Notes: generated by a model not told the origin, from the letters alone. Shown: positions 1,143-16,833, counted from the first letter of the stretch. The stretch: 21,753 nucleotides of DNA from a virus (IMGVR_UViG_2526164691_000017:1-21753); one strand, 5' to 3'. Numbers and translations: made by a program.

Positions 1143-1360
1143 CAGAACCTCGCCAGCCGGTACCCGGGATGCCCCCGTCGTCGTGTAATCAGAGCCGCAA
1201 GGCGGCGCTCCCACTCCTGCCGTCCCTGCCGGATCTCAGATAAGTTTTCCATGGTCATCTGCTGACCATTAAAGGTGACGGATTTTCCGTCCAGCACCGC
1301 CATTTCAGCTTCCGTATAACGCTGAATCATGGCTTCAATATCATTCTGGTTCATAACCAT
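1142..1360 (-). CDS. gpW-like head-tail joining protein (72 aa)
   Basis: Small ORF between large terminase and portal; C-terminal RRRGxPG tail resembles lambda gpW as remembered; stop overlaps the portal start. Confidence 0.55.
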   Translation of the reverse strand: MVMNQNDIEAMIQRYTEAEMAVLDGKSVTFNGQQMTMENLSEIRQGRQEWERRLAALITRRRGHPGYRLARF

Positions 1361-1644
1361 CCTCCGGAAGTCAGCCAGGGGTTAACATCGTCAGTTACTG
1401 TTTTCTTCCGTTTTTGTTTTTTAACTAGGCGTGGATACCGGTTCCGGTGAGGATGACGGTTCGGTACTGTCCTGGACACACTCCAGCCAGGTCTCCGGCT
1501 CGCCCACTCCGGTGCATCCGGCCAGCGGATCTTTTCGTATCCATGCAGAATGACCAGAGCCTCGGCATACACCATCAGGTCGAAAAGCTTCGTTGGCACC
1601 GCGACCCGGCTTACTCCATTTCCCGTCACTGCTCCGCTCTTCAT
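1351..1644 (-). CDS. Hypothetical 97-aa basic protein between large terminase and gpW
   Basis: ORF start overlaps the terminase stop (TAATG) and its end overlaps the gpW start by 10 nt; Lys/Arg-rich centre. No homolog recognised. Confidence 0.3.
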   Translation of the reverse strand: MKSGAVTGNGVSRVAVPTKLFDLMVYAEALVILHGYEKIRWPDAPEWASRRPGWSVSRTVPNRHPHRNRYPRLVKKQKRKKTVTDDVNPWLTSGGWL

Positions 1645-3452
1645 TACGTCAGTTCGTCGTAAAACCAGCTCCCCAGCCAGTCAGGGAAATGCACATAGCC
1701 GGGACCTGGCGAGTCACGCCATAACGCGTTATTCACCCGGTCTTTCAGGGCATCCGTCTGAAGAAGCCAGAGCGGCACATCACCTGCGGCCTGCGCCCGT
1801 CGGCCCGTTCGTCCGGTGTTATCAGGGAATGTACGGGTGATCAGTTTTGCGCGCCGGATGCTGTCGCCCTTAAACAGGTAAATACGTTTACCAAGGCCAT
1901 CACGACGGCAACGACGCCAGAATTTATAGGCATTATCAGTGACCCCGTCTTCACCGCCGGAGTCCACCGCCATTGCCATCAGTCGCATTTGTTGAGAAGG
2001 GTCGGAGGCCAGCGGCCAGCTTTTATGAAAAACATCCGTCAGCAGGACATCCCAGTCTTCCGGATAGCTGGCTGGATCAATTCGCTGGCTCTCCCCGTCG
2101 CTGTCACCGCGCAATGACTGCGTGATGTTGTAACGATCAATAATCCAGCGTTCGCCACGGCTGCCATAGCCCGTTACCTGAACCACAAAACGGCGATGAC
2201 GTCCCGCCTGCACATCCACTGTCGCCACAAGGAAATTAACGCCATCCGGCACACTGCGGGAAGGAACTGGCTCTGCCCGCTGCTCAAGCAATTCACTTTT
2301 TCGTTGCTCCATGCTGGCACGAGGAAGATAAGGCAATCCCCAGTCGGTGTTGATAACCGCCCTGAGTGTTTCTTCGCTTCCTGTCGCTTCATACTCCTGT
2401 TCTGCAGTCAGTAATTTGTAAACCAGTTGCGCCCAGGTCTGATACGCAGCAGCTGGCCCTTCCATCCAGAAACTGGCGATACGGGAGCGGCGCGGTTCAC
2501 CGGAAACGTTGCCGTTACGATCAATGACCTGACCTTCACGCAACCAGACTCCTGCACTATTGAGCTCACGCTTTTTCTCCGCAGTGATAATGCCGCTGCA
2601 GTGCGGGCAAAGTAGATACGCCGCCTCACTGGCTTTAAAGGGATCCGGTTCATTACGGTAGCCGGTCATGGCATCCATGGCTGGCTGAAAATATTCACCG
2701 CAGTGCGGACATGACCAGTACCAGCGGCGGCGGTCACCACGATTGTAAAGGGAAAGAATACCAGTCGTCGGTGGCGCTTCATGAGGCGACTTACGTCGCC
2801 ATTTGCTGTCGCAGATGTCACGTCCCGGCGAGCTCTCCACCAGAGTCATCCCGGCGGACATAAATGTGGTGGTACGTTTTGAGGCCAGGGAGAAACCATC
2901 ACCCTCGCTGTCGATATTCTCCGGAAAACGGTCGTAATCGGTTAAGGCGACAAACCGGTAATCCGACGACGACATAATGTTGACCGAGGGCCAACCAATT
3001 TTAAGGAACGAGCCATCCCTGAACGTCTTATCATGGACATTATTGTCGTTACGACGTGGACTCATTCTTTTCTTTACCGCCGCACTGCTTCTGAACGTTC
3101 TGTCGAGGCGCTTTTTAGAATGCTCGCGGGCCTTATCTTCGGTCATCTGCACAACGAGCATGTCCGAAGGATCGCAAACGATGGTATAGACAATCCATCC
3201 ATCGATCAGACCAATGGTCTTCCCTGTTCGCGCAGGACCAACAAAAATCACCGCATCGTATTCACGCGATGCCAGGCAGTTCATGGGCTCAATGATGTAG
3301 GGTGTCAGTTCAGGATCCCATGGCACCGAGTTACCAGCCCCCTTGTGAACACGCATGAATTTTTTAACAGCCTCCGAAATCGGCATGCGACGTGGTGGGG
3401 AAAATCCTGCCGATATGTCCCTTCCCAAATTTCGGGCTGATGAAAAACCCAT
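1644..3452 (-). CDS. Terminase large subunit, lambda GpA family (602 aa)
   Basis: Architecture matches lambda gpA as remembered, including CPHCGE zinc-binding motif and C-terminal GYVHFP; GGAGG RBS 5-9 nt upstream of ATG at 3452; directly downstream of the Nu1-like gene. Confidence 0.85.
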   Translation of the reverse strand: MGFSSARNLGRDISAGFSPPRRMPISEAVKKFMRVHKGAGNSVPWDPELTPYIIEPMNCLASREYDAVIFVGPARTGKTIGLIDGWIVYTIVCDPSDMLVVQMTEDKAREHSKKRLDRTFRSSAAVKKRMSPRRNDNNVHDKTFRDGSFLKIGWPSVNIMSSSDYRFVALTDYDRFPENIDSEGDGFSLASKRTTTFMSAGMTLVESSPGRDICDSKWRRKSPHEAPPTTGILSLYNRGDRRRWYWSCPHCGEYFQPAMDAMTGYRNEPDPFKASEAAYLLCPHCSGIITAEKKRELNSAGVWLREGQVIDRNGNVSGEPRRSRIASFWMEGPAAAYQTWAQLVYKLLTAEQEYEATGSEETLRAVINTDWGLPYLPRASMEQRKSELLEQRAEPVPSRSVPDGVNFLVATVDVQAGRHRRFVVQVTGYGSRGERWIIDRYNITQSLRGDSDGESQRIDPASYPEDWDVLLTDVFHKSWPLASDPSQQMRLMAMAVDSGGEDGVTDNAYKFWRRCRRDGLGKRIYLFKGDSIRRAKLITRTFPDNTGRTGRRAQAAGDVPLWLLQTDALKDRVNNALWRDSPGPGYVHFPDWLGSWFYDELT

Positions 3453-11015: not shown

Positions 11016-12065
11016 TTACGCCAGTACGCCAATTGCCAGCGCGCGATCGATAAAACGAAATATCAGCTCCAGTTGGGAGCCATACTTCTCTTCAAATGCC
11101 ACTGTATCCGTATGCAGCTCGTTGTGATGCTTTCTGCACAAAGGCAACACAAAGAGATCATGTGCTTTTGTTCCCATTCCGCCCTGCCCGTGACCAATCA
11201 GATGATGCGGATCGTCGGCTGGCATACCGCAGCAAGCACACGGCTGTGTCTTAACCCAACGTGTGTATTTCTCCTTAACCCAGCGGCGACGTTTAGGCAG
11301 CTTCATGAAAGATTCCGGAGACTCTGGATCAACGGTGATGCTTACCACCGCCTTTTCCTGTGGTGTTTTTTGTTGCTGGTGGGCGTAAGGCAACGGTGCA
11401 AGATTTTTTGTGCGTTGTTTCAATATGCTGGTGGCGGTCTGCTCTCCCGGTACGATGTCGCTTTCGCGGTACACCGAGCAGATTTTTTCCGCTGGTAATC
11501 CCAGCGAACGACGCGATACAGCCTCAGGTAGTGCATCCACCACCTGATTGCAGACCGCCCACCAGGATAATTCAGCCAAAGATAATTCCCGCTCCTGCGT
11601 ACCGCTTATTGCGTGACGGATGACGTCAATCACCCATGCTGTCAGATTTTGTTGAGCAAGCAGCTCCAGTGATTCCGATGTCTGGTCACGCAGTTGGTTG
11701 TCGCAGTGCCAACACAACACCATTGCGCCGGTACCATAACGGTGAATGACTGTTTCAGAGTGATGGTAATCGCCATTAGGCCACTGGCAGGATGTAACAT
11801 GACGTAATAGCCAGTCAGACAATGCGCCAACACCGCCAGCAGCACGAATCACCCGTTCGTTACTAAAAAACGGCAGCAATGTTTTGTCTTCCGCCAGCGA
11901 CTGGCGAACGGCAGGAACGACTCCGGATGGCAGATTACGCATGCTTTTTGGTTCCGGTTCCACCAGCACTCGAGGATTATGAAATATCTGTATGGATTCA
12001 CGGCCCGGCTTAAGGACCACCAGCCCAAGCTCAGGCACCAGAACAGGTCTAAGTAATACCCGCAC
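11016..12065 (-). CDS. ydfU: YdfU-like protein (DUF968-type, Cys/His-rich C-terminus), 349 aa from a GTG start
   Basis: ORF 11016..12104; GGAGG-TAAC-GTG at 12065 gives 349 aa, the K-12 YdfU length; C-terminal CACCGMPADDPHHLIGHG...CRKHHNELH motif. Confidence 0.7.
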   Translation of the reverse strand: MRVLLRPVLVPELGLVVLKPGRESIQIFHNPRVLVEPEPKSMRNLPSGVVPAVRQSLAEDKTLLPFFSNERVIRAAGGVGALSDWLLRHVTSCQWPNGDYHHSETVIHRYGTGAMVLCWHCDNQLRDQTSESLELLAQQNLTAWVIDVIRHAISGTQERELSLAELSWWAVCNQVVDALPEAVSRRSLGLPAEKICSVYRESDIVPGEQTATSILKQRTKNLAPLPYAHQQQKTPQEKAVVSITVDPESPESFMKLPKRRRWVKEKYTRWVKTQPCACCGMPADDPHHLIGHGQGGMGTKAHDLFVLPLCRKHHNELHTDTVAFEEKYGSQLELIFRFIDRALAIGVLA

Positions 12066-12066
12066 G

Positions 12067-12345
12067 TTACCTCCAGATCCGTTGCTGGAAAGTGCGGGAC
12101 GCACGTGGTGGGCGTTCGGAGTAAGGCAATCTGACTGAGATTATCCAGTGACGGTAGTCGAGGCTAAGGGCTTTCTTAACCTCGTATCCGCGCCTGCGGT
12201 AACACTGAATTATCCATTCAGCCTGCTCTTCAGTGCATGGAGGGTGTTGGAACCATTCAGACTTGAATGCGTGAGAATACCGCTCGTGCGTGCAGACAAG
12301 AACGGGCGAATTATCAGAATTGTAATATTTTACGTTGCGTGCCAT
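12067..12345 (-). CDS. Hypothetical 92-aa protein, translationally coupled to ydfU
   Basis: ORF track; its stop codon overlaps the ydfU RBS; Cys/His-containing. Either this ORF or 12412..12663 may correspond to K-12 rem; I cannot say which. Confidence 0.45.
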   Translation of the reverse strand: MARNVKYYNSDNSPVLVCTHERYSHAFKSEWFQHPPCTEEQAEWIIQCYRRRGYEVKKALSLDYRHWIISVRLPYSERPPRASRTFQQRIWR

Positions 12346-12411
12346 CGGTTTTCTCCGGTGGCACGGTGTTACTCAGCGGGAGTTCAGCCCCGCGCAAGAT
12401 TGTAGATGAGT

Positions 12412-12663
12412 TTATTCTTCTGCAAAAGCTGAAAAGCCTGCTTTTATTCCGATCTCTTTCAGTGCCTGTAATGAAGTGACAAACTCACCTTCGCGCAAGA
12501 TAAATCCGTCTGTCACTCGACCATCCACAAAATTAATTAACGCAGCCCCATTCTTTCGCAAACACATAATGCGGTAATGACTAACAAAATTTCCATTTTC
12601 AACGCACACAGCATAGAGGCCATCTTCACAAAAAATTTTACGCAGTTCTTCGATGTTCATCAT
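12412..12663 (-). CDS. Hypothetical 83-aa protein (possibly the rem equivalent)
   Basis: ORF track; 83 aa equals the annotated length of K-12 Rem and it sits between ydfU and hokD, but I do not remember the Rem sequence. Confidence 0.45.
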   Translation of the reverse strand: MMNIEELRKIFCEDGLYAVCVENGNFVSHYRIMCLRKNGAALINFVDGRVTDGFILREGEFVTSLQALKEIGIKAGFSAFAEE

Positions 12664-12780
12664 CAGAATCCTTCCGGATAATTAGCTCTCCCCTTTAAGG
12701 GACCATCCCTCTTATCCCTGCGCGCTACTTAAGTATTTTTGATTCTATTCCGGCACCGTCCAGAACTTCAAACGCGTTGA

Positions 12781-12811
12781 AAATAAAAACAAAAACCCGC
12801 CGAAGCGGGTT
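12781..12811 (-). terminator. Rho-independent terminator downstream of hokD
   Basis: AACCCGC-CGAA-GCGGGTT hairpin followed on the minus strand by TTTTTGTTTTTATTT. Confidence 0.65.
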
Positions 12812-12879
12812 AAGTGCGGGTGCGTTGAGGATGCCTGCCACATCAGAGGTGGCGAGGGATTTCTCCCTCGCCGGGTTTC

Positions 12880-13035
12880 TTACTCCTCAGGTTCGTAAGC
12901 TGTGAAGACAGCGACCTCCGTCTGGCCGGTTCGGATTCGTACCTCGCAGAGGTCTTTCCTCGTTACCAGTGCCGTCACTATGACGGTTAAACAGATGACG
13001 ATCAGGGCGATTAACATCGCCTTTTGCTGCTTCAT
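12880..13035 (-). CDS. hokD: Hok-family type I toxin (51 aa)
   Basis: From the internal Met of ORF 12880..13092: MKQQKAMLIALIVICLTVIVTALVTRKDLCEVRIRTGQTEVAVFTAYEPEE, a single-TM Hok/Gef peptide matching K-12 HokD as remembered; AAGGAG RBS upstream. Confidence 0.8.
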   Translation of the reverse strand: MKQQKAMLIALIVICLTVIVTALVTRKDLCEVRIRTGQTEVAVFTAYEPEE

Positions 13036-13758
13036 AGCCTGCTTCTCCTTGCCTTTCGGCACGTAAGAGGCTAACCTACATATGTCTAGCATGAAATTGG
13101 CCTCAGATTAATGTTAAGCGTCTTGCAGGACGCGTAATGTTAACTGGGGCTTTTCTCTATCTGCCGTTGGTGTTCATGCCCGAGGCAGATAGCCTCAAGC
13201 ACCCGCAGCCATTCTACTTAACTACCGTTACCTCGCCAATGTGAAATCAGTCAGAAAGGCGATCCATAAGAACAATAGCAAGACAATAAATCGCCATTAC
13301 AGCCGTAATAGCCAGCGCACATTTGAGAACCAGCACCACAACCTCCTGTATTGGACGTAGACCAGTCCTGATGAATATGAGGCTGTCTCGTCAGTGATTC
13401 AATACAACTATTGGGTATAGTTTCTCTGATTTTTTCTGTGGAAATGGGGCACAACCACTAGTCACCACCAGCACTTCTTTTAATACGCAAAGTCCGACAC
13501 AAGCTAACCTTCTAGTCCGCTTTGAGCGAAAAACAGCCATAATTTAGTGCCACGTATATAATGATAGAGCTATTCAAGCTAGCAATTCACATGTAAAAAT
13601 TCAGAGGGTAGATGCACATAGTTATAAATGTTGGCTCCATCGACAAATTGCGGTCTCAAGTACATTTTAGACTGGCCCCCTGAATCTCCAGACAACCAGT
13701 ATCACTTAAATAAGTGATAGTCTTAATACTAGTTTTTAGACTAGTCATTGGAGAACAG

Positions 13759-14124
13759 ATGATTGATGTCTTAGGGCCGGAGAAACGCAGACGGCGTACC
13801 ACACAGGAAAAGATCGCAATTGTTCAGCAGAGCTTTGAACCGGGGATGACGGTCTCCCTCGTTGCCCGGCAACATGGTGTAGCAGCCAGCCAGTTATTTC
13901 TCTGGCGTAAGCAATACCAGGAAGGAAGTCTTACCGCTGTCGCCGCCGGAGAACAGGTTGTTCCTGCCTCTGAACTTGCTGCCGCCATGAAGCAGATTAA
14001 AGAACTCCAGCGCCTGCTCGGCAAGAAAACGATGGAAAATGAACTCCTCAAAGAAGCCGTTGAATATGGACGGGCAAAAAAGTGGATAGCGCACGCGCCC
14101 TTATTGCCCGGGGATGGGGAGTAA
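13759..14124 (+). CDS. insC: IS2 transposase OrfA (InsC), 121 aa
   Basis: [56 protein letters not shown]: HTH plus leucine-zipper OrfA; A6G slippery heptamer (GGGCAAAAAAGTGG near 14068-14081) for the -1 frameshift into insD. Confidence 0.9.
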
Positions 14125-14987
14125 GCTTAGTCAGCCGTTGTCTCCGGGTGTCGCGTGCGCAGTTGCACGTCATTCTCAGACGAACCGATGACTGGATGGA
14201 TAGCCGCCGCAGTCGTCACACTGATGATACGGATGTGCTTCTCCGTATACACCATGTTATCGGAGAGCTGCCCACGTATGGTTATCGTCGGGTATGGGCG
14301 CTGCTTCGCAGACAGGCAGAACTTGATGGTATGCCTGCGATCAATGCCAAACGTGTTTACCGGATCATGCGCCAGAATGCGCTGTTGCTTGAGCGAAAAC
14401 CTGCTGTACCGCCATCGAAACGGGCACATACAGGCAGAGTGGCCGTGAAAGAAAGCAATCAGCGATGGTGCTCTGACGGGTTCGAGTTCTGCTGTGATAA
14501 CGGAGAGAGACTGCGTGTCACGTTCGCGCTGGACTGCTGTGATCGTGAGGCACTGCACTGGGCGGTGACTACCGGCGGTTTCAACAGTGAAACAGTACAG
14601 GACGTCATGCTGGGAGCGGTGGAACGCCGCTTCGGCAACGATCTTCCGTCGTCTCCAGTGGAGTGGCTGACGGATAATGGTTCATGCTACCGGGCTAATG
14701 AAACACGCCAGTTCGCCCGGATGTTGGGACTTGAACCGAAGAACACGGCGGTGCGGAGTCCGGAGAGTAACGGAATAGCAGAGAGCTTCGTGAAAACGAT
14801 AAAGCGTGACTACATCAGTATCATGCCCAAACCAGACGGGTTAACGGCAGCAAAGAACCTTGCAGAGGCGTTCGAGCATTATAACGAATGGCATCCGCAT
14901 AGTGCGCTGGGTTATCGCTCGCCACGGGAATATCTGCGGCAGCGGGCTTGTAATGGGTTAAGTGATAACAGATGTCTGGAAATATAG
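14082..14987 (+). CDS. insD: IS2 transposase OrfB (InsD), DDE catalytic domain, 301 aa
   Basis: ORF track; overlaps insC in the -1 frame; IS3-family integrase-core protein with the DDE triad (the final Glu in the [10 protein letters not shown] segment). Confidence 0.9.
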
Positions 14988-15045
14988 GGGCAAATCCACA
15001 TTTATTAATGTTGCCCCCGCATTAACAAATCATCAAGGTGACGAC

Positions 15046-16833
15046 ATGGACGATATTAATATCAGCCTCGACGAACTTAACACTATTGATTTATCCCCCT
15101 TAATCCAGAGTAAGCTGCCAGTTACCTGCTTTGATATCACAAAGTATCTTTCTAGCCTAGGTGATGGAAGAGCGGAGATAAGACTGCTAACCCATATTTG
15201 CGGTTTTCACTTTCGTCCCGAAAATCCACAGGTACCATTTGGTCCGTGCTTTCAAAGCAGCCAAGGTAGATCTGCAATTCCGGATGACATTAACGGGTTG
15301 TCGCTGGAGGTACTTTCTCAATTTTGCCCGACGATAGAGCTACCCGAACTTCAAGCTCGTATTGCTGATACACTTTGGGTTCGTAAAATTGGTGGAATCC
15401 GTTTTCCTTTGCTGGCAGTCCGTGCTTATTATGCGTCCAGTATAGCTATTATGACATCGCAAGGGACGTGGGTTAGTGCTTTAGAACGCCTAGAGCGTGC
15501 GCTTAGGCTGTGTTGTTTTTTTCGAAAGCATACTGATTTCAGGGATGAATTTGATCAGCTTTCGGCACATCTACTAGCAGAGTATGAACGTACCAGAGAA
15601 CAAGGCGATTCACCTTATCCGCTGCGACTCCTGCAACTCGATATCGACTGTAAAGTGAGTGAGCCATCTTTTATTGCCCAGGAACTCCTGTTTCTGACAA
15701 AAAACTATCTGGCTCAAAAATTATTTTCATTTGCCGTCGATGCCTGTAAAACCGCAATCCCGATTGCGAATAGGTGCTGTGACAGAGATACACAGTTTGA
15801 ATTCTGGCGGCTTCTTGCCGATACACATCTGGAAGAGTCAAAATTCCAAGATGGCGGTATGATTTCGGCAGCCTGCATGCAGAATGCTATTGAAGCACTG
15901 GCTAATATTCCAGGAACCCGAATAGAACGTCTTGCGCTGTATGAAGAAATGCGTGATTACCAAATCGAATCCCGTCACCAGATGTCTATCCTTCAGTCTC
16001 CCCCTCAAGATATTAGTGAGATTGTCCATCAAGCCAAGAGTCGGGTAGTCGGAAGAGATTTGTTTGATATGGTTTTCAGACTTGCGATGCTGGTCTGTCG
16101 GCCAACCAGCATTGAGAGACTTAAGGCTCAAGCAATAGAACAAAAGGCCAACAGCATAGCTTGGATGTTTGGATCAACACATATTGATCATGAGGGAATG
16201 ACACTTGCTCGCATACCCGCAGGATTGGGGATTGATGATGCAAATGGGGCAGTTATTTGGCCCATAATGATGACGAGAATGCGTATCGACCATGAGTTGG
16301 CAGTAGCTGGGCAAATTATTCCTGCTACAGATGAGATCACAATGAAATATCCAATCTCGGAGGCGTTTTTTCGCGATATGTTCATCAATCATCCCTTCAT
16401 CCCGTTTGGGCATGAAGAGTTTTTCATCAAGGGTATGGTTTGCGGTTTCAATGGAGATTTTATGACGGCATGCCACGTGTTGATTCCCCAGATCGAAAAT
16501 AGTCTGAGATATGTGGCTAAAATTAAAGGTGAGGAACCATCGCAGCTTCACGGGGACGGTTCGCAAGAGCGAAATGGACTCAAGGGATTACTAGATAATC
16601 CACTGATTATTGAAGCTTTCGGCGTAGACATAATTGGCAATCTTCAGGCCTTACTGGTAGATAAAATCTATGGTGATTTACGAAATCAACTAGCTCACGG
16701 ATATGTGCCTGCCGGTTACTACAATCAACCTCCCTGCATTTTTGCATGGTGGCTTGTATTGCACATTCTAATGAACCCTACGGCGAGATACTGGCAAGCC
16801 ACTTATGGCCAAGAGAGTGAGGCTCAGACTTAA
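15046..16833 (+). CDS. Large uncharacterised cargo protein (595 aa) with C-terminal HEPN-like R-x4-H motif; candidate defence/abortive-infection effector
   Basis: ATG at 15046 preceded by AAGGTGA RBS (the ORF-track start at 14962 lies inside IS2 and is an artefact). RNQLAHG encoded at 16681-16701. Plus-strand gene convergent with the minus-strand early operon; GC content appears below the flanking genes by eye. No K-12 Qin counterpart recalled here. Confidence 0.7.
   Translation: MDDINISLDELNTIDLSPLIQSKLPVTCFDITKYLSSLGDGRAEIRLLTHICGFHFRPENPQVPFGPCFQSSQGRSAIPDDINGLSLEVLSQFCPTIELPELQARIADTLWVRKIGGIRFPLLAVRAYYASSIAIMTSQGTWVSALERLERALRLCCFFRKHTDFRDEFDQLSAHLLAEYERTREQGDSPYPLRLLQLDIDCKVSEPSFIAQELLFLTKNYLAQKLFSFAVDACKTAIPIANRCCDRDTQFEFWRLLADTHLEESKFQDGGMISAACMQNAIEALANIPGTRIERLALYEEMRDYQIESRHQMSILQSPPQDISEIVHQAKSRVVGRDLFDMVFRLAMLVCRPTSIERLKAQAIEQKANSIAWMFGSTHIDHEGMTLARIPAGLGIDDANGAVIWPIMMTRMRIDHELAVAGQIIPATDEITMKYPISEAFFRDMFINHPFIPFGHEEFFIKGMVCGFNGDFMTACHVLIPQIENSLRYVAKIKGEEPSQLHGDGSQERNGLKGLLDNPLIIEAFGVDIIGNLQALLVDKIYGDLRNQLAHGYVPAGYYNQPPCIFAWWLVLHILMNPTARYWQATYGQESEAQT

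Follow-up and report, generated by a model that had tools for sequence, protein, structure and literature searches.

In Escherichia coli K-12, the hokD gene (relF) is the third gene of the relBEF operon in the Qin prophage. In the viral sequence analysed here (IMGVR_UViG_2526164691_000017:1-21753; 21,753 nt, hereafter the window), hokD stands alone. This locus raises two questions: whether the solitary gene belongs to a complete toxin-antitoxin unit, and which of the two layouts, with or without relBE, is the original one. A preliminary description of the window, made from its sequence, had likened the locus to canonical hok/sok systems rather than to the K-12 operon. Its claims are taken up below together with the results that bear on them, and the coordinates of all features are collected in Table 1.

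Table 1. Features of the hokD locus and its upstream region, listed in the direction of hok transcription (window coordinates).
Feature	Position	Strand	Details
IS2, 1331 bp	13668..14998	+	CATTT 5-bp duplication, 13663-13667 and 14999-15003; outside the hok unit
Variable intergenic part	13531..13667	.	Of the neighbouring cargo gene (DUF4209 / PDC-S39), parted from its start region by IS2
Rest of ~320-bp block	13337..13530	-	Indels frequent upstream of ~13410
29-codon ORF, candidate small membrane protein	13247..13336	-	MLVLKCALAITAVMAIYCLAIVLMDRLSD; GTG start; AGGAGG 13347..13342, 5-nt spacing; unannotated
Predicted hok promoter	13211..13239	-	-35 TTGGCG (13239..13234), 17-nt spacer, -10 TAGAAT (13216..13211); promoter scan
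tac (translational activator)	13193..13207	-	UGCGGGUGCUUGAGG; 5′ end of hok mRNA; kept in hokB, hokC, hokE; complementary to fbi
Inverted repeat of the preliminary description	13157..13192	-	Inner hairpin of 5′ tac stem-loop; first hairpin of RF01794 model
Predicted Sok RNA, ~77 nt	13084..13160	+	Transfer of annotated K-12 sokC, sokB, sokE coordinates
ucb / anti-SD box	13146..13154	-	AAAAGCCCC; Rfam structure, full-length MFE fold, fold of 13207..13140
mok ORF, 70 codons	12880..13092	-	In-frame 19-codon extension of hok
Predicted Sok promoter	13049..13077	+	-35 TTGCCT (13049-13054), 17-nt spacer, -10 TAACCT (13072-13077); by eye and alignment
Unoccupied 15-bp target	13034..13048	-	GGAGAAGCAGGCTAT in hok sense; 1 copy in window
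hok ORF (HokD, 51 aa)	12880..13035	-	Pfam HOK_GEF PF01848, 81.6 bits (cut-off 22)
3′ stem-loop, perfect 9 bp	12851..12872	-	After hok stop; fold -19.7 kcal/mol, z = -4.5
fbi (fold-back inhibitory element)	12815..12830	-	CCUCAACGCACCCGCA; pairs with tac; 9-nt perfect core
Intrinsic terminator of hok mRNA	12786..12811	-	Stem 12811..12794, then U-run; terminator scan and terminal hairpin in full-length fold

The hok and mok reading frames

Consistent with the preliminary description, the Hok reading frame of the window is intact and preceded by its own AAGGAG ribosome-binding site (13050..13045). The encoded protein has 100% of its residues in common with K-12 HokD. The best public match to the window, E. 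coli DEC9B, is 100% identical to it, IS2 junction included. On its 5′ side the hok frame is extended by mok, whose AUG (13092) lies 8 nt 3′ of a GAGG ribosome-binding site (13104..13101) and whose frame is uninterrupted in six of six diverged copies. The mokC and hokC genes of K-12 share a common stop coordinate, the same arrangement as in mok and hok of the window.

The interval between hok and IS2 (13036-13667) had been described as a non-coding region of about 630 bp. Its length is indeed 632 bp, but it is not devoid of coding sequence, as it contains 19 mok codons, the predicted Sok gene, two predicted promoters and a conserved 29-codon ORF. As had been noted, no RelE- or RelB-like ORF lies upstream of hok: a tblastn search with K-12 RelE and RelB over the whole window gives a best E value of 2.7, and a blastn comparison of the window with the 3301-bp element that carries relBE in other genomes (see below) yields no match. 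The relBEF arrangement, with relB and relE directly upstream of hokD and co-oriented with it, is therefore absent from the window. In K-12 itself, hokD was confirmed as the gene that follows relB and relE.

Leader, end pairing and 3′ end of the hok mRNA

An Rfam scan of positions 12300-14000 returns a single strong match, RF01794 (‘sok'), aligned over its full length (positions 1-157 of 157) to minus-strand 13204..13030 with 112.7 bits (gathering score 59, E = 2e-26). Since this match is in the sense of hok and reaches its end at the AUG of that gene, it represents the hok mRNA leader, with Sok within its complement. The predicted hok promoter places +1 at ~13204-13207, which is also the start of the Rfam model; its -10 box aligns with those of hokC, hokB and hokE, and the promoter is nearly invariant in an alignment of diverged copies. 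Weak matches to isrK, rsmX and ceN48 (25.7, 22.2 and 23.3 bits), located either on the leader or on the 3′ hairpin and terminator, are far under their gathering scores and were rejected as chance hairpin resemblance.

Both perfect inverted repeats singled out in the preliminary description are found in the sequence: CTATCTGCC / GGCAGATAG, with arms at 13157-13165 and 13184-13192 and 18 nt between them, and GGCGAGGGA-TTTC-TCCCTCGCC, with arms at 12851-12859 and 12864-12872 and a 4-nt loop. By a rough estimate, chance alone would produce about 0.1 perfect short-loop inverted repeats of 9 bp per kb. Both repeats are conserved elements of the hok family and so are not attributable to chance. The second of them is probably, by analogy with the R1 model in PMC9841398, the protective 3′-terminal hairpin of the processed (truncated) hok mRNA.

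The predicted fold of the full-length transcript (418-nt RNA; -175.8 kcal/mol, z = -7.9) brings the 5′ and 3′ ends together and masks the mok ribosome-binding site by the AAAAGCCCC box. In the full-length fold this box, ucb, pairs with the region of the mok ribosome-binding site; in the open structure given by Rfam its partner is tac. Pairing of the ends is mediated by a tac/fbi duplex of 15 bp with one bulge, for which RNAduplex gives -27.7 kcal/mol, compared with a mean of -18.4 and a best value of -26.1 kcal/mol for tac against 300 shuffled 3′ UTRs. The position of fbi relative to the stop codon is similar in related loci (49 nt after it in the window, 48 nt in K-12 hokB and 45 nt in a reconstructed IncI pndA), and comparison of the same three loci reveals compensatory changes in the duplex, GGGUGC/GCACCC versus GGGCGC/GCGCCC. 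A further hok leader, located beside a 6093-bp variant of the relBE element (L143), was left out of this comparison as its 5′ part is missing.

The predicted Sok antisense RNA

When the hokC, hokB and hokE loci of K-12 are aligned to the window, the annotated sokC, sokB and sokE genes all land (3/3) on the plus strand at 13084..13159/13160. In the RNA predicted in this way, the unpaired 5′ end is the complement of the start codon and ribosome-binding site of mok, and behind it come a long terminator hairpin and a CUUUUCUCU U-run. The fold of this RNA (-30.5 kcal/mol, z = -5.5) has the shape of the K-12 Sok RNAs, except that 18 nt are inserted at the tip of the hairpin. The putative Sok promoter aligns with the region upstream of K-12 sokB (TTGCCG-17-TAAGAT); in a promoter scan requiring 9/12 consensus positions it stays below threshold and was not picked up.

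The likeness to a canonical hok/sok layout proposed in the preliminary description is thus borne out at the sequence level, where the RF01794 leader, mok, tac and fbi, a predicted Sok gene with a promoter called by homology, the 3′ stem-loop and the terminator are all present. Judged from these elements, the minus-strand interval 12786-13239 is very probably a complete hokD-type hok/mok/sok type I toxin-antitoxin locus of a Qin-like lambdoid prophage, and its relBE-free state the original, unoccupied site. Systems of the hok/sok kind are already known, and the layout of the window is their commonest configuration.

Proposed mode of action

Transposed from the R1 model summarised in PMC9841398, the mode of action of the locus would be as follows. 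The hok mRNA, ~415 nt long and starting near 13204, would be inert at full length, the tac/fbi pairing of its ends locking a fold in which the mok ribosome-binding site is hidden by ucb. Slow 3′ trimming to the 12872-12851 hairpin would remove fbi and free tac, and the freed tac would capture ucb and open mok, hok being translated by coupling to mok. The ~77-nt Sok RNA, abundant but unstable, would bind the opened mRNA around the start of mok and direct it to cleavage and decay. Hok would accordingly be made, and the cell killed, only once synthesis of the short-lived Sok stops.

A locus of this composition could also be a silent relic, in which every element is present although it no longer kills or is never activated. 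In favour of this possibility, a Hok survey preprint reports, citing earlier work, that the chromosomal hokA, hokB and hokC loci brought about neither post-segregational killing nor activation by rifampicin. By analogy, the locus of the window could be intact in sequence yet silent. Moreover, the 18-nt insertion lies in the ucb/ribosome-binding-site hairpin and makes the closed form stabler than in the K-12 loci. Against this, the promoter, tac, ucb, the mok frame and fbi are nearly invariant in copies with 6-11% divergence elsewhere, overexpression of the HokD coding sequence is toxic (Hok survey preprint), and hokW-sokW, a different hok/sok locus of prophage origin, is an active type I system (PMC8621323). 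Silence of the locus is therefore possible but, in our view, rather unlikely. The Hok survey preprint also describes A-to-I editing of mRNA that recodes a cysteine position (Cys46) in hokC, hokD and hokE, and reports that full toxicity of HokB needs editing at codon 29.

Distribution of stand-alone and relBE-linked hokD

The stand-alone layout is less unusual than the preliminary description implied. The uninterrupted site, scored as the contiguous 136-nt segment 12975-13110 spanning the hok start, is present in 4008 of 5426 complete E. coli genomes and is thus the majority state of the species, the K-12 junction (hokD 5′ end to relE 3′ end) being found in 1167 of the same 5426. The same locus occurs in free phages, among them mEp460, Evi, Tritos and HannyBb, where it is named MokW or HokD. 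In ATCC 25922, a relative without IS2, the gene divergent from hokD encodes a DUF4209 protein; other prophages carry differing genes at this position, and the homology of the hokD locus stops at ~13530. The prevalence of this layout together with its variable neighbours indicates that stand-alone hokD is the usual state. In Qin-like prophages the gene adjoins a slot with variable cargo that has the replication genes on one side and rem-ydfU-Q on the other.

A probable transposon between hokD and its leader in K-12-type genomes

Homology between the window and K-12 breaks off at 13049, 14 nt upstream of the hok AUG. In other genomes with relBE, the leader is found displaced by 3.3 kb, as a segment corresponding to window positions 13034-13224 in E. 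coli W and 13034-13529 in 2018-06-4CC, and in RM6927 ~29 bp of it (13034-13062) are left on the far side. The genes between hokD and the displaced leader are relE, relB, ydfV, flxA, ydfW and a transposase gene of the ISEsa1 family. They form a block of 3301 bp with inverted ends, TGTTAACACCAAGCTGTAATGTCCCC (TGTTAACACC...) and, reverse-complemented, TGTCAACGCAAAGCAGAAGTGTCACC (TGTCAACGCA...), which agree at 19 positions out of 26; their tips are TGT...ACA. On either side of the block, W, 2018-06-4CC and RM6927 have the same 15 bp in direct orientation, GGAGAAGCAGGCTAT, a sequence that begins at the ribosome-binding site of hok and ends with the AU of its start codon. The window is continuous with both sides of the insertion, through 12000-13049 on one side and 13034-13224 (W) or 13034-13529 (2018-06-4CC) on the other. 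A reading of the displaced leader in 2018-06-4CC as a separate chromosomal hok locus was rejected in view of the 15-bp repeat and inverted ends in W and RM6927, which lie within an otherwise normal Qin-like prophage.

The element is not confined to hokD. A complete 3301-bp copy with a full-length transposase of 446 aa (NCBIfam ISNCY_2, 464.7 bits, cut-off 250) resides on the Salmonella IncI plasmid pSA20064858.1, where it splits pndA, a Hok-family gene, at the same relative position and is flanked by another 15-bp repeat, TGGAGGGGCTATGAT. A 6093-bp variant in Enterobacter and Superficieibacter is inserted at a third hok gene, with GGAGAAGAAGGCCAT as its flanks, so that 15-bp duplications are seen at three independent sites. 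Plasmid and E. coli chromosomal copies are 99.8% identical, and the transposase of the latter is annotated as incomplete. K-12 keeps element positions 1231-3301 only (the right-hand 2071 bp), and its YdfW protein corresponds exactly to the last 49 residues of the transposase. The relE-proximal end of the element is present in 892 plasmids. Among 27 real element ends, taken from one genome per species, ~17-19 abut the start of a Hok-family gene, with at least 7 different Hok proteins represented and a single, constant orientation, and about one-third of the ends in other species do not lie beside a hok gene. Copies of the element in at least 7 hok-family genes other than hokD are 99% identical and alike in position. 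Near-identical elements beside strongly diverged hok genes argue for recent and independent insertions.

The TGT...ACA inverted ends match end features described for the IS1202 family (PMC10132070). For ISEsa1 itself, the same paper gives no detectable target duplication and lists no target, whereas the relBE element shows a duplication of 15 bp. The course of events would then have been that a 3301-bp IS1202-family (ISEsa1-like) transposon, carrying its transposase gene along with flxA, ydfV, relB and relE, inserted into a 15-bp stretch covering the ribosome-binding site and start codon of hokD. Because the 15 bp were duplicated on insertion, hokD would have retained a ribosome-binding site and become the third gene behind relBE, while its promoter, mok start and sok would have been pushed 3.3 kb away and, in K-12, later deleted. 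We infer that the element recognizes its target; the conserved GCCGNAAGGCAA hairpin, adjacent to the duplication on its 5′ side, could plausibly determine this recognition.

Inverted ends, target duplication and an element-free window with one copy of the 15-mer together indicate that the relBE-linked state is derived and that the window represents the unoccupied target. The opposite polarity would make the region a deletion scar, in which an ancestor with relB-relE-hokD as in K-12 lost relBE and kept non-coding debris. The gene order as such would allow it, since relE lies directly upstream of an identical HokD in K-12, W and the 1167 genomes with the K-12 junction, and the two 15-bp repeats could in principle recombine to leave one copy. 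However, the sequence upstream of hok is a full-length, high-scoring hok leader joined seamlessly to the gene, with zero element sequence remaining in the window. It is the occupied state that bears the marks of insertion, and the uninterrupted one is the majority, present in free phages and in copies that have diverged by 5-12%. The preliminary description had held that relatives with relBE immediately upstream would identify the region as such a scar; K-12 and W do have relBE there, but inside a transposon with a 15-bp target duplication. Loss of relBE from the window is thus very improbable. Next to no weight can be given to the idea that the 13157-13192 repeat is a protein operator or the terminator of an upstream gene instead of part of an RNA leader, for although its arms form a perfect 9-bp palindrome between genes, the Rfam model of the hok leader has its first hairpin here, the predicted +1 lies upstream of it, and a U-run follows it on neither strand.

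A conserved block with a small ORF upstream of the hok promoter

A block of ~320 bp (13210-13530) travels with hokD-type loci, at 88-95% identity and in ~3000 genomes, in which it is unannotated. It contains the 29-codon ORF, which is intact in every complete copy among 128. Changes at its codon positions 1, 2 and 3 number 6, 5 and 15, and 14 of the 26 are synonymous, compared with 26% expected (p = 0.003, on a small sample of related sequences). In the 75 nt upstream, read in the same frame, the corresponding numbers are 18, 16 and 14, with no periodicity and with in-frame stops. The product looks like one transmembrane helix; it has no family match in Pfam, NCBIfam, PHROGs or PADLOC, and a few GenBank records label it as a hypothetical or membrane protein. 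Longer versions of the ORF in some databases (68 aa and 97 aa) were rejected, as the frame is closed by stops 17-18 codons upstream in nearly all copies and codon periodicity is absent from this part. The conservation pattern is suggestive of a small gene, which the ORF probably is. The remainder of the block (13337..13530) presumably contains its promoter and 5′ UTR.

Implications

We favour, with moderate confidence, a view of the relBEF ‘operon' as the fusion of a transposon with its target: an IS1202-family element with relBE as cargo would insert in a specific orientation at the starts of hok-family genes, namely hokD, pndA and six or more further ones, severing the toxin from its own promoter, mok and Sok and setting it behind relBE. 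A separate point is the 29-aa membrane peptide, conserved and unannotated, that would be encoded upstream of the hok promoter. This transposon origin of the relBE-hokD arrangement, exposed by comparison of the two states of the site, is the main interest of the locus. It would explain why type II relBE genes lie beside a type I toxin gene and why hokD of K-12 has no Sok, and it would also account for ydfW of K-12 as the last 49 codons of the transposase and for flxA and ydfV as transposon cargo. The absence of upstream regulatory elements from K-12 hokD was reportedly noted by Pedersen and Gerdes in 1999, in their work on chromosomal hok loci. A transposon origin of relBEF is not described in the IS1202-family paper (PMC10132070), the 2025-26 survey of Hok loci or the full-text literature searched, and it may be recorded elsewhere.

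For annotation, hokD of the window belongs with mok, a Sok RNA gene and a leader, and the K-12 layout, a minority and rearranged state, is a poor reference for what is ‘normal'. The empty and occupied sites together define a target, an orientation and a 15-bp duplication for a transposon of the IS1202 family; PMC10132070 gives neither a target nor a duplication for ISEsa1. The small ORF adds a candidate membrane protein that annotation pipelines have overlooked.

Comparison with known systems

The closest paradigm is the hok/mok/sok (parB) type I system of plasmid R1 (model in PMC9841398), whose parts recur in the window without change of order: promoter, tac, ucb, mok and its own ribosome-binding site, a predicted antisense Sok that overlaps mok and would be transcribed from a promoter within it, then hok, the 3′ hairpin, fbi and the terminator. 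The R1 system is plasmid-borne, whereas the window locus lies in a prophage and its Hok is far closer to K-12 HokC than to R1-like plasmid Hok. The window also differs from R1 in that the ucb/ribosome-binding-site hairpin, and with it the Sok terminator, is longer by 18 nt at its tip. The leaders of the K-12 loci hokB/sokB, hokC/sokC and hokE/sokE align with that of the window and keep the 5′ GCGGGUGC box, but the hairpins of SokB, SokC and SokE are 18-20 nt shorter than that of the predicted Sok. In K-12, hokC and hokE are cut downstream by IS186 and hokA upstream by IS150, whereas the window locus is uninterrupted. K-12 hokD, the third gene of relBEF, resembles the window most closely in one direction only: its hok ORF, 3′ UTR and downstream rem and ydfU are 97-98% identical up to 13049, beyond which the mok start, sok, ucb, tac and promoter are missing and their place is taken by the relBE transposon (its right-hand 2071 bp).

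The hokW-sokW locus of the Stx2 prophage Sp5 (PMC8621323) is a different member of the family, situated in the phage late region and with a Hok ~37% identical to that of the window. An equation of the two loci by way of ‘MokW' labels was rejected on these grounds of protein identity and location in the phage and because VT2-Sakai has no DNA match to the window locus. ‘MokW' is used in PHROG and other annotation as a generic name.

The relBE element, finally, shares with the IS1202 family or transporter ISs, and with their ISEsa1 group (PMC10132070), a large ISNCY-type transposase and imperfect TGT...ACA ends of ~26 bp, as well as the subterminal repeats of the inner inverted end and a strict orientation at a specific target that are described for the family. 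It differs in the passenger genes that it carries (flxA, ydfV and relBE), in its 15-bp duplication and in landing on the starts of hok-family genes.

The relBE transposon and its insertion at hok-family genes

The relBEF genes of K-12 are a truncated copy of a 3,301-bp IS1202-family transposon, which encodes the transposase together with flxA, ydfV, relB and relE. The element is bounded by inverted ends (TGT...ACA, 19 of 26 positions matching) and flanked by 15-bp target duplications. Its insertion point lies in the ribosome-binding-site/start region of hokD, of pndA and of at least six further Hok-family genes, where it is found in a single, fixed orientation. The 49-residue YdfW of K-12 is identical in sequence to the last 49 residues of the ISEsa1-like transposase, and homology to the element stops within ydfX, about 13 bp from its 3′ end; ydfW is therefore a C-terminal transposase fragment and not a separate gene.

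Coordinates of features in the window and in comparison loci (L-numbers, each from another genome or plasmid and in its own numbering)
Feature	Location	Strand	Context
IS1202-family element copy	L018:1762-5062		Salmonella IncI plasmid
IS1202-family element copy	L014:3965-7237		E. coli W
IS1202-family element copy, truncated	L010:16289-18359		K-12
ydfW	L010:18175-18324		K-12
Displaced hok leader	L014:7238-7428		E. coli W
Displaced hok leader	L008:3824-4320		2018-06-4CC
18-nt insertion, Sok/ucb hairpin tip	window 13119-13136		Present in hokD-type loci
Unannotated conserved ORF, 29 codons	window 13247-13336	-	Directly upstream of hok promoter
IS2, 1,331 bp, CATTT duplication	window 13668-14998
DUF7380 + DUF4209 gene	window 15046-16833	+	Divergent from hokD; matches PADLOC candidate defence system PDC-S39
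IS421	L009:2366-3478		Strain LR-45, 3′ UTR of hokD-like locus

Nested or tandem arrangements of the element occur in two Leclercia genomes (L169 and L165) and in Citrobacter portucalensis (L153). One of them has a second, related inverted end directly beside the first element at a hok site; another places an element end within the transposase gene of a different copy; and in a third, an inverted hok leader adjoins the element end.

The displaced leader and the upstream ORF

Genomes with relBE at this site keep the displaced leader of hok, including sok and the start of mok, as an orphan 3.3 kb from hokD, and this orphan could still produce Sok with no linked target. In 2018-06-4CC it is accompanied by the hok promoter region and the 29-codon ORF; both are mostly lost in E. 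coli W, where homology stops at window position 13224. This ORF is preceded by a strong ribosome-binding site, and its substitutions show a codon-position pattern that is consistent with translation and fits a product that is a candidate small membrane protein; a search for a family match to this product found none.

The region beyond the hok promoter

The annotated start of the PDC-S39-like gene (PADLOC match, E = 2e-102) lies 43 bp downstream of the IS2 insertion, which may alter the expression of this gene. Among the top matches listed, strain DEC9B alone spans the IS2 junction. In other Qin-like prophages unrelated genes occupy the position of the PDC-S39-like gene, which suggests a variable slot for cargo or defence genes.

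Comparison with other hok loci

The 18-nt insertion of hokD-type loci forms an extra small GC-rich stem (GCGUC...GACGC) at the tip of a hairpin common to the hok leader and the Sok terminator, whereas hokB, hokC and hokE of K-12 lack it. In the hokD-like locus of LR-45, IS421 separates the 3′ hairpin from fbi, an interruption of a hok locus by an insertion sequence like those by IS186/IS150 in hokC, hokE and hokA of K-12.
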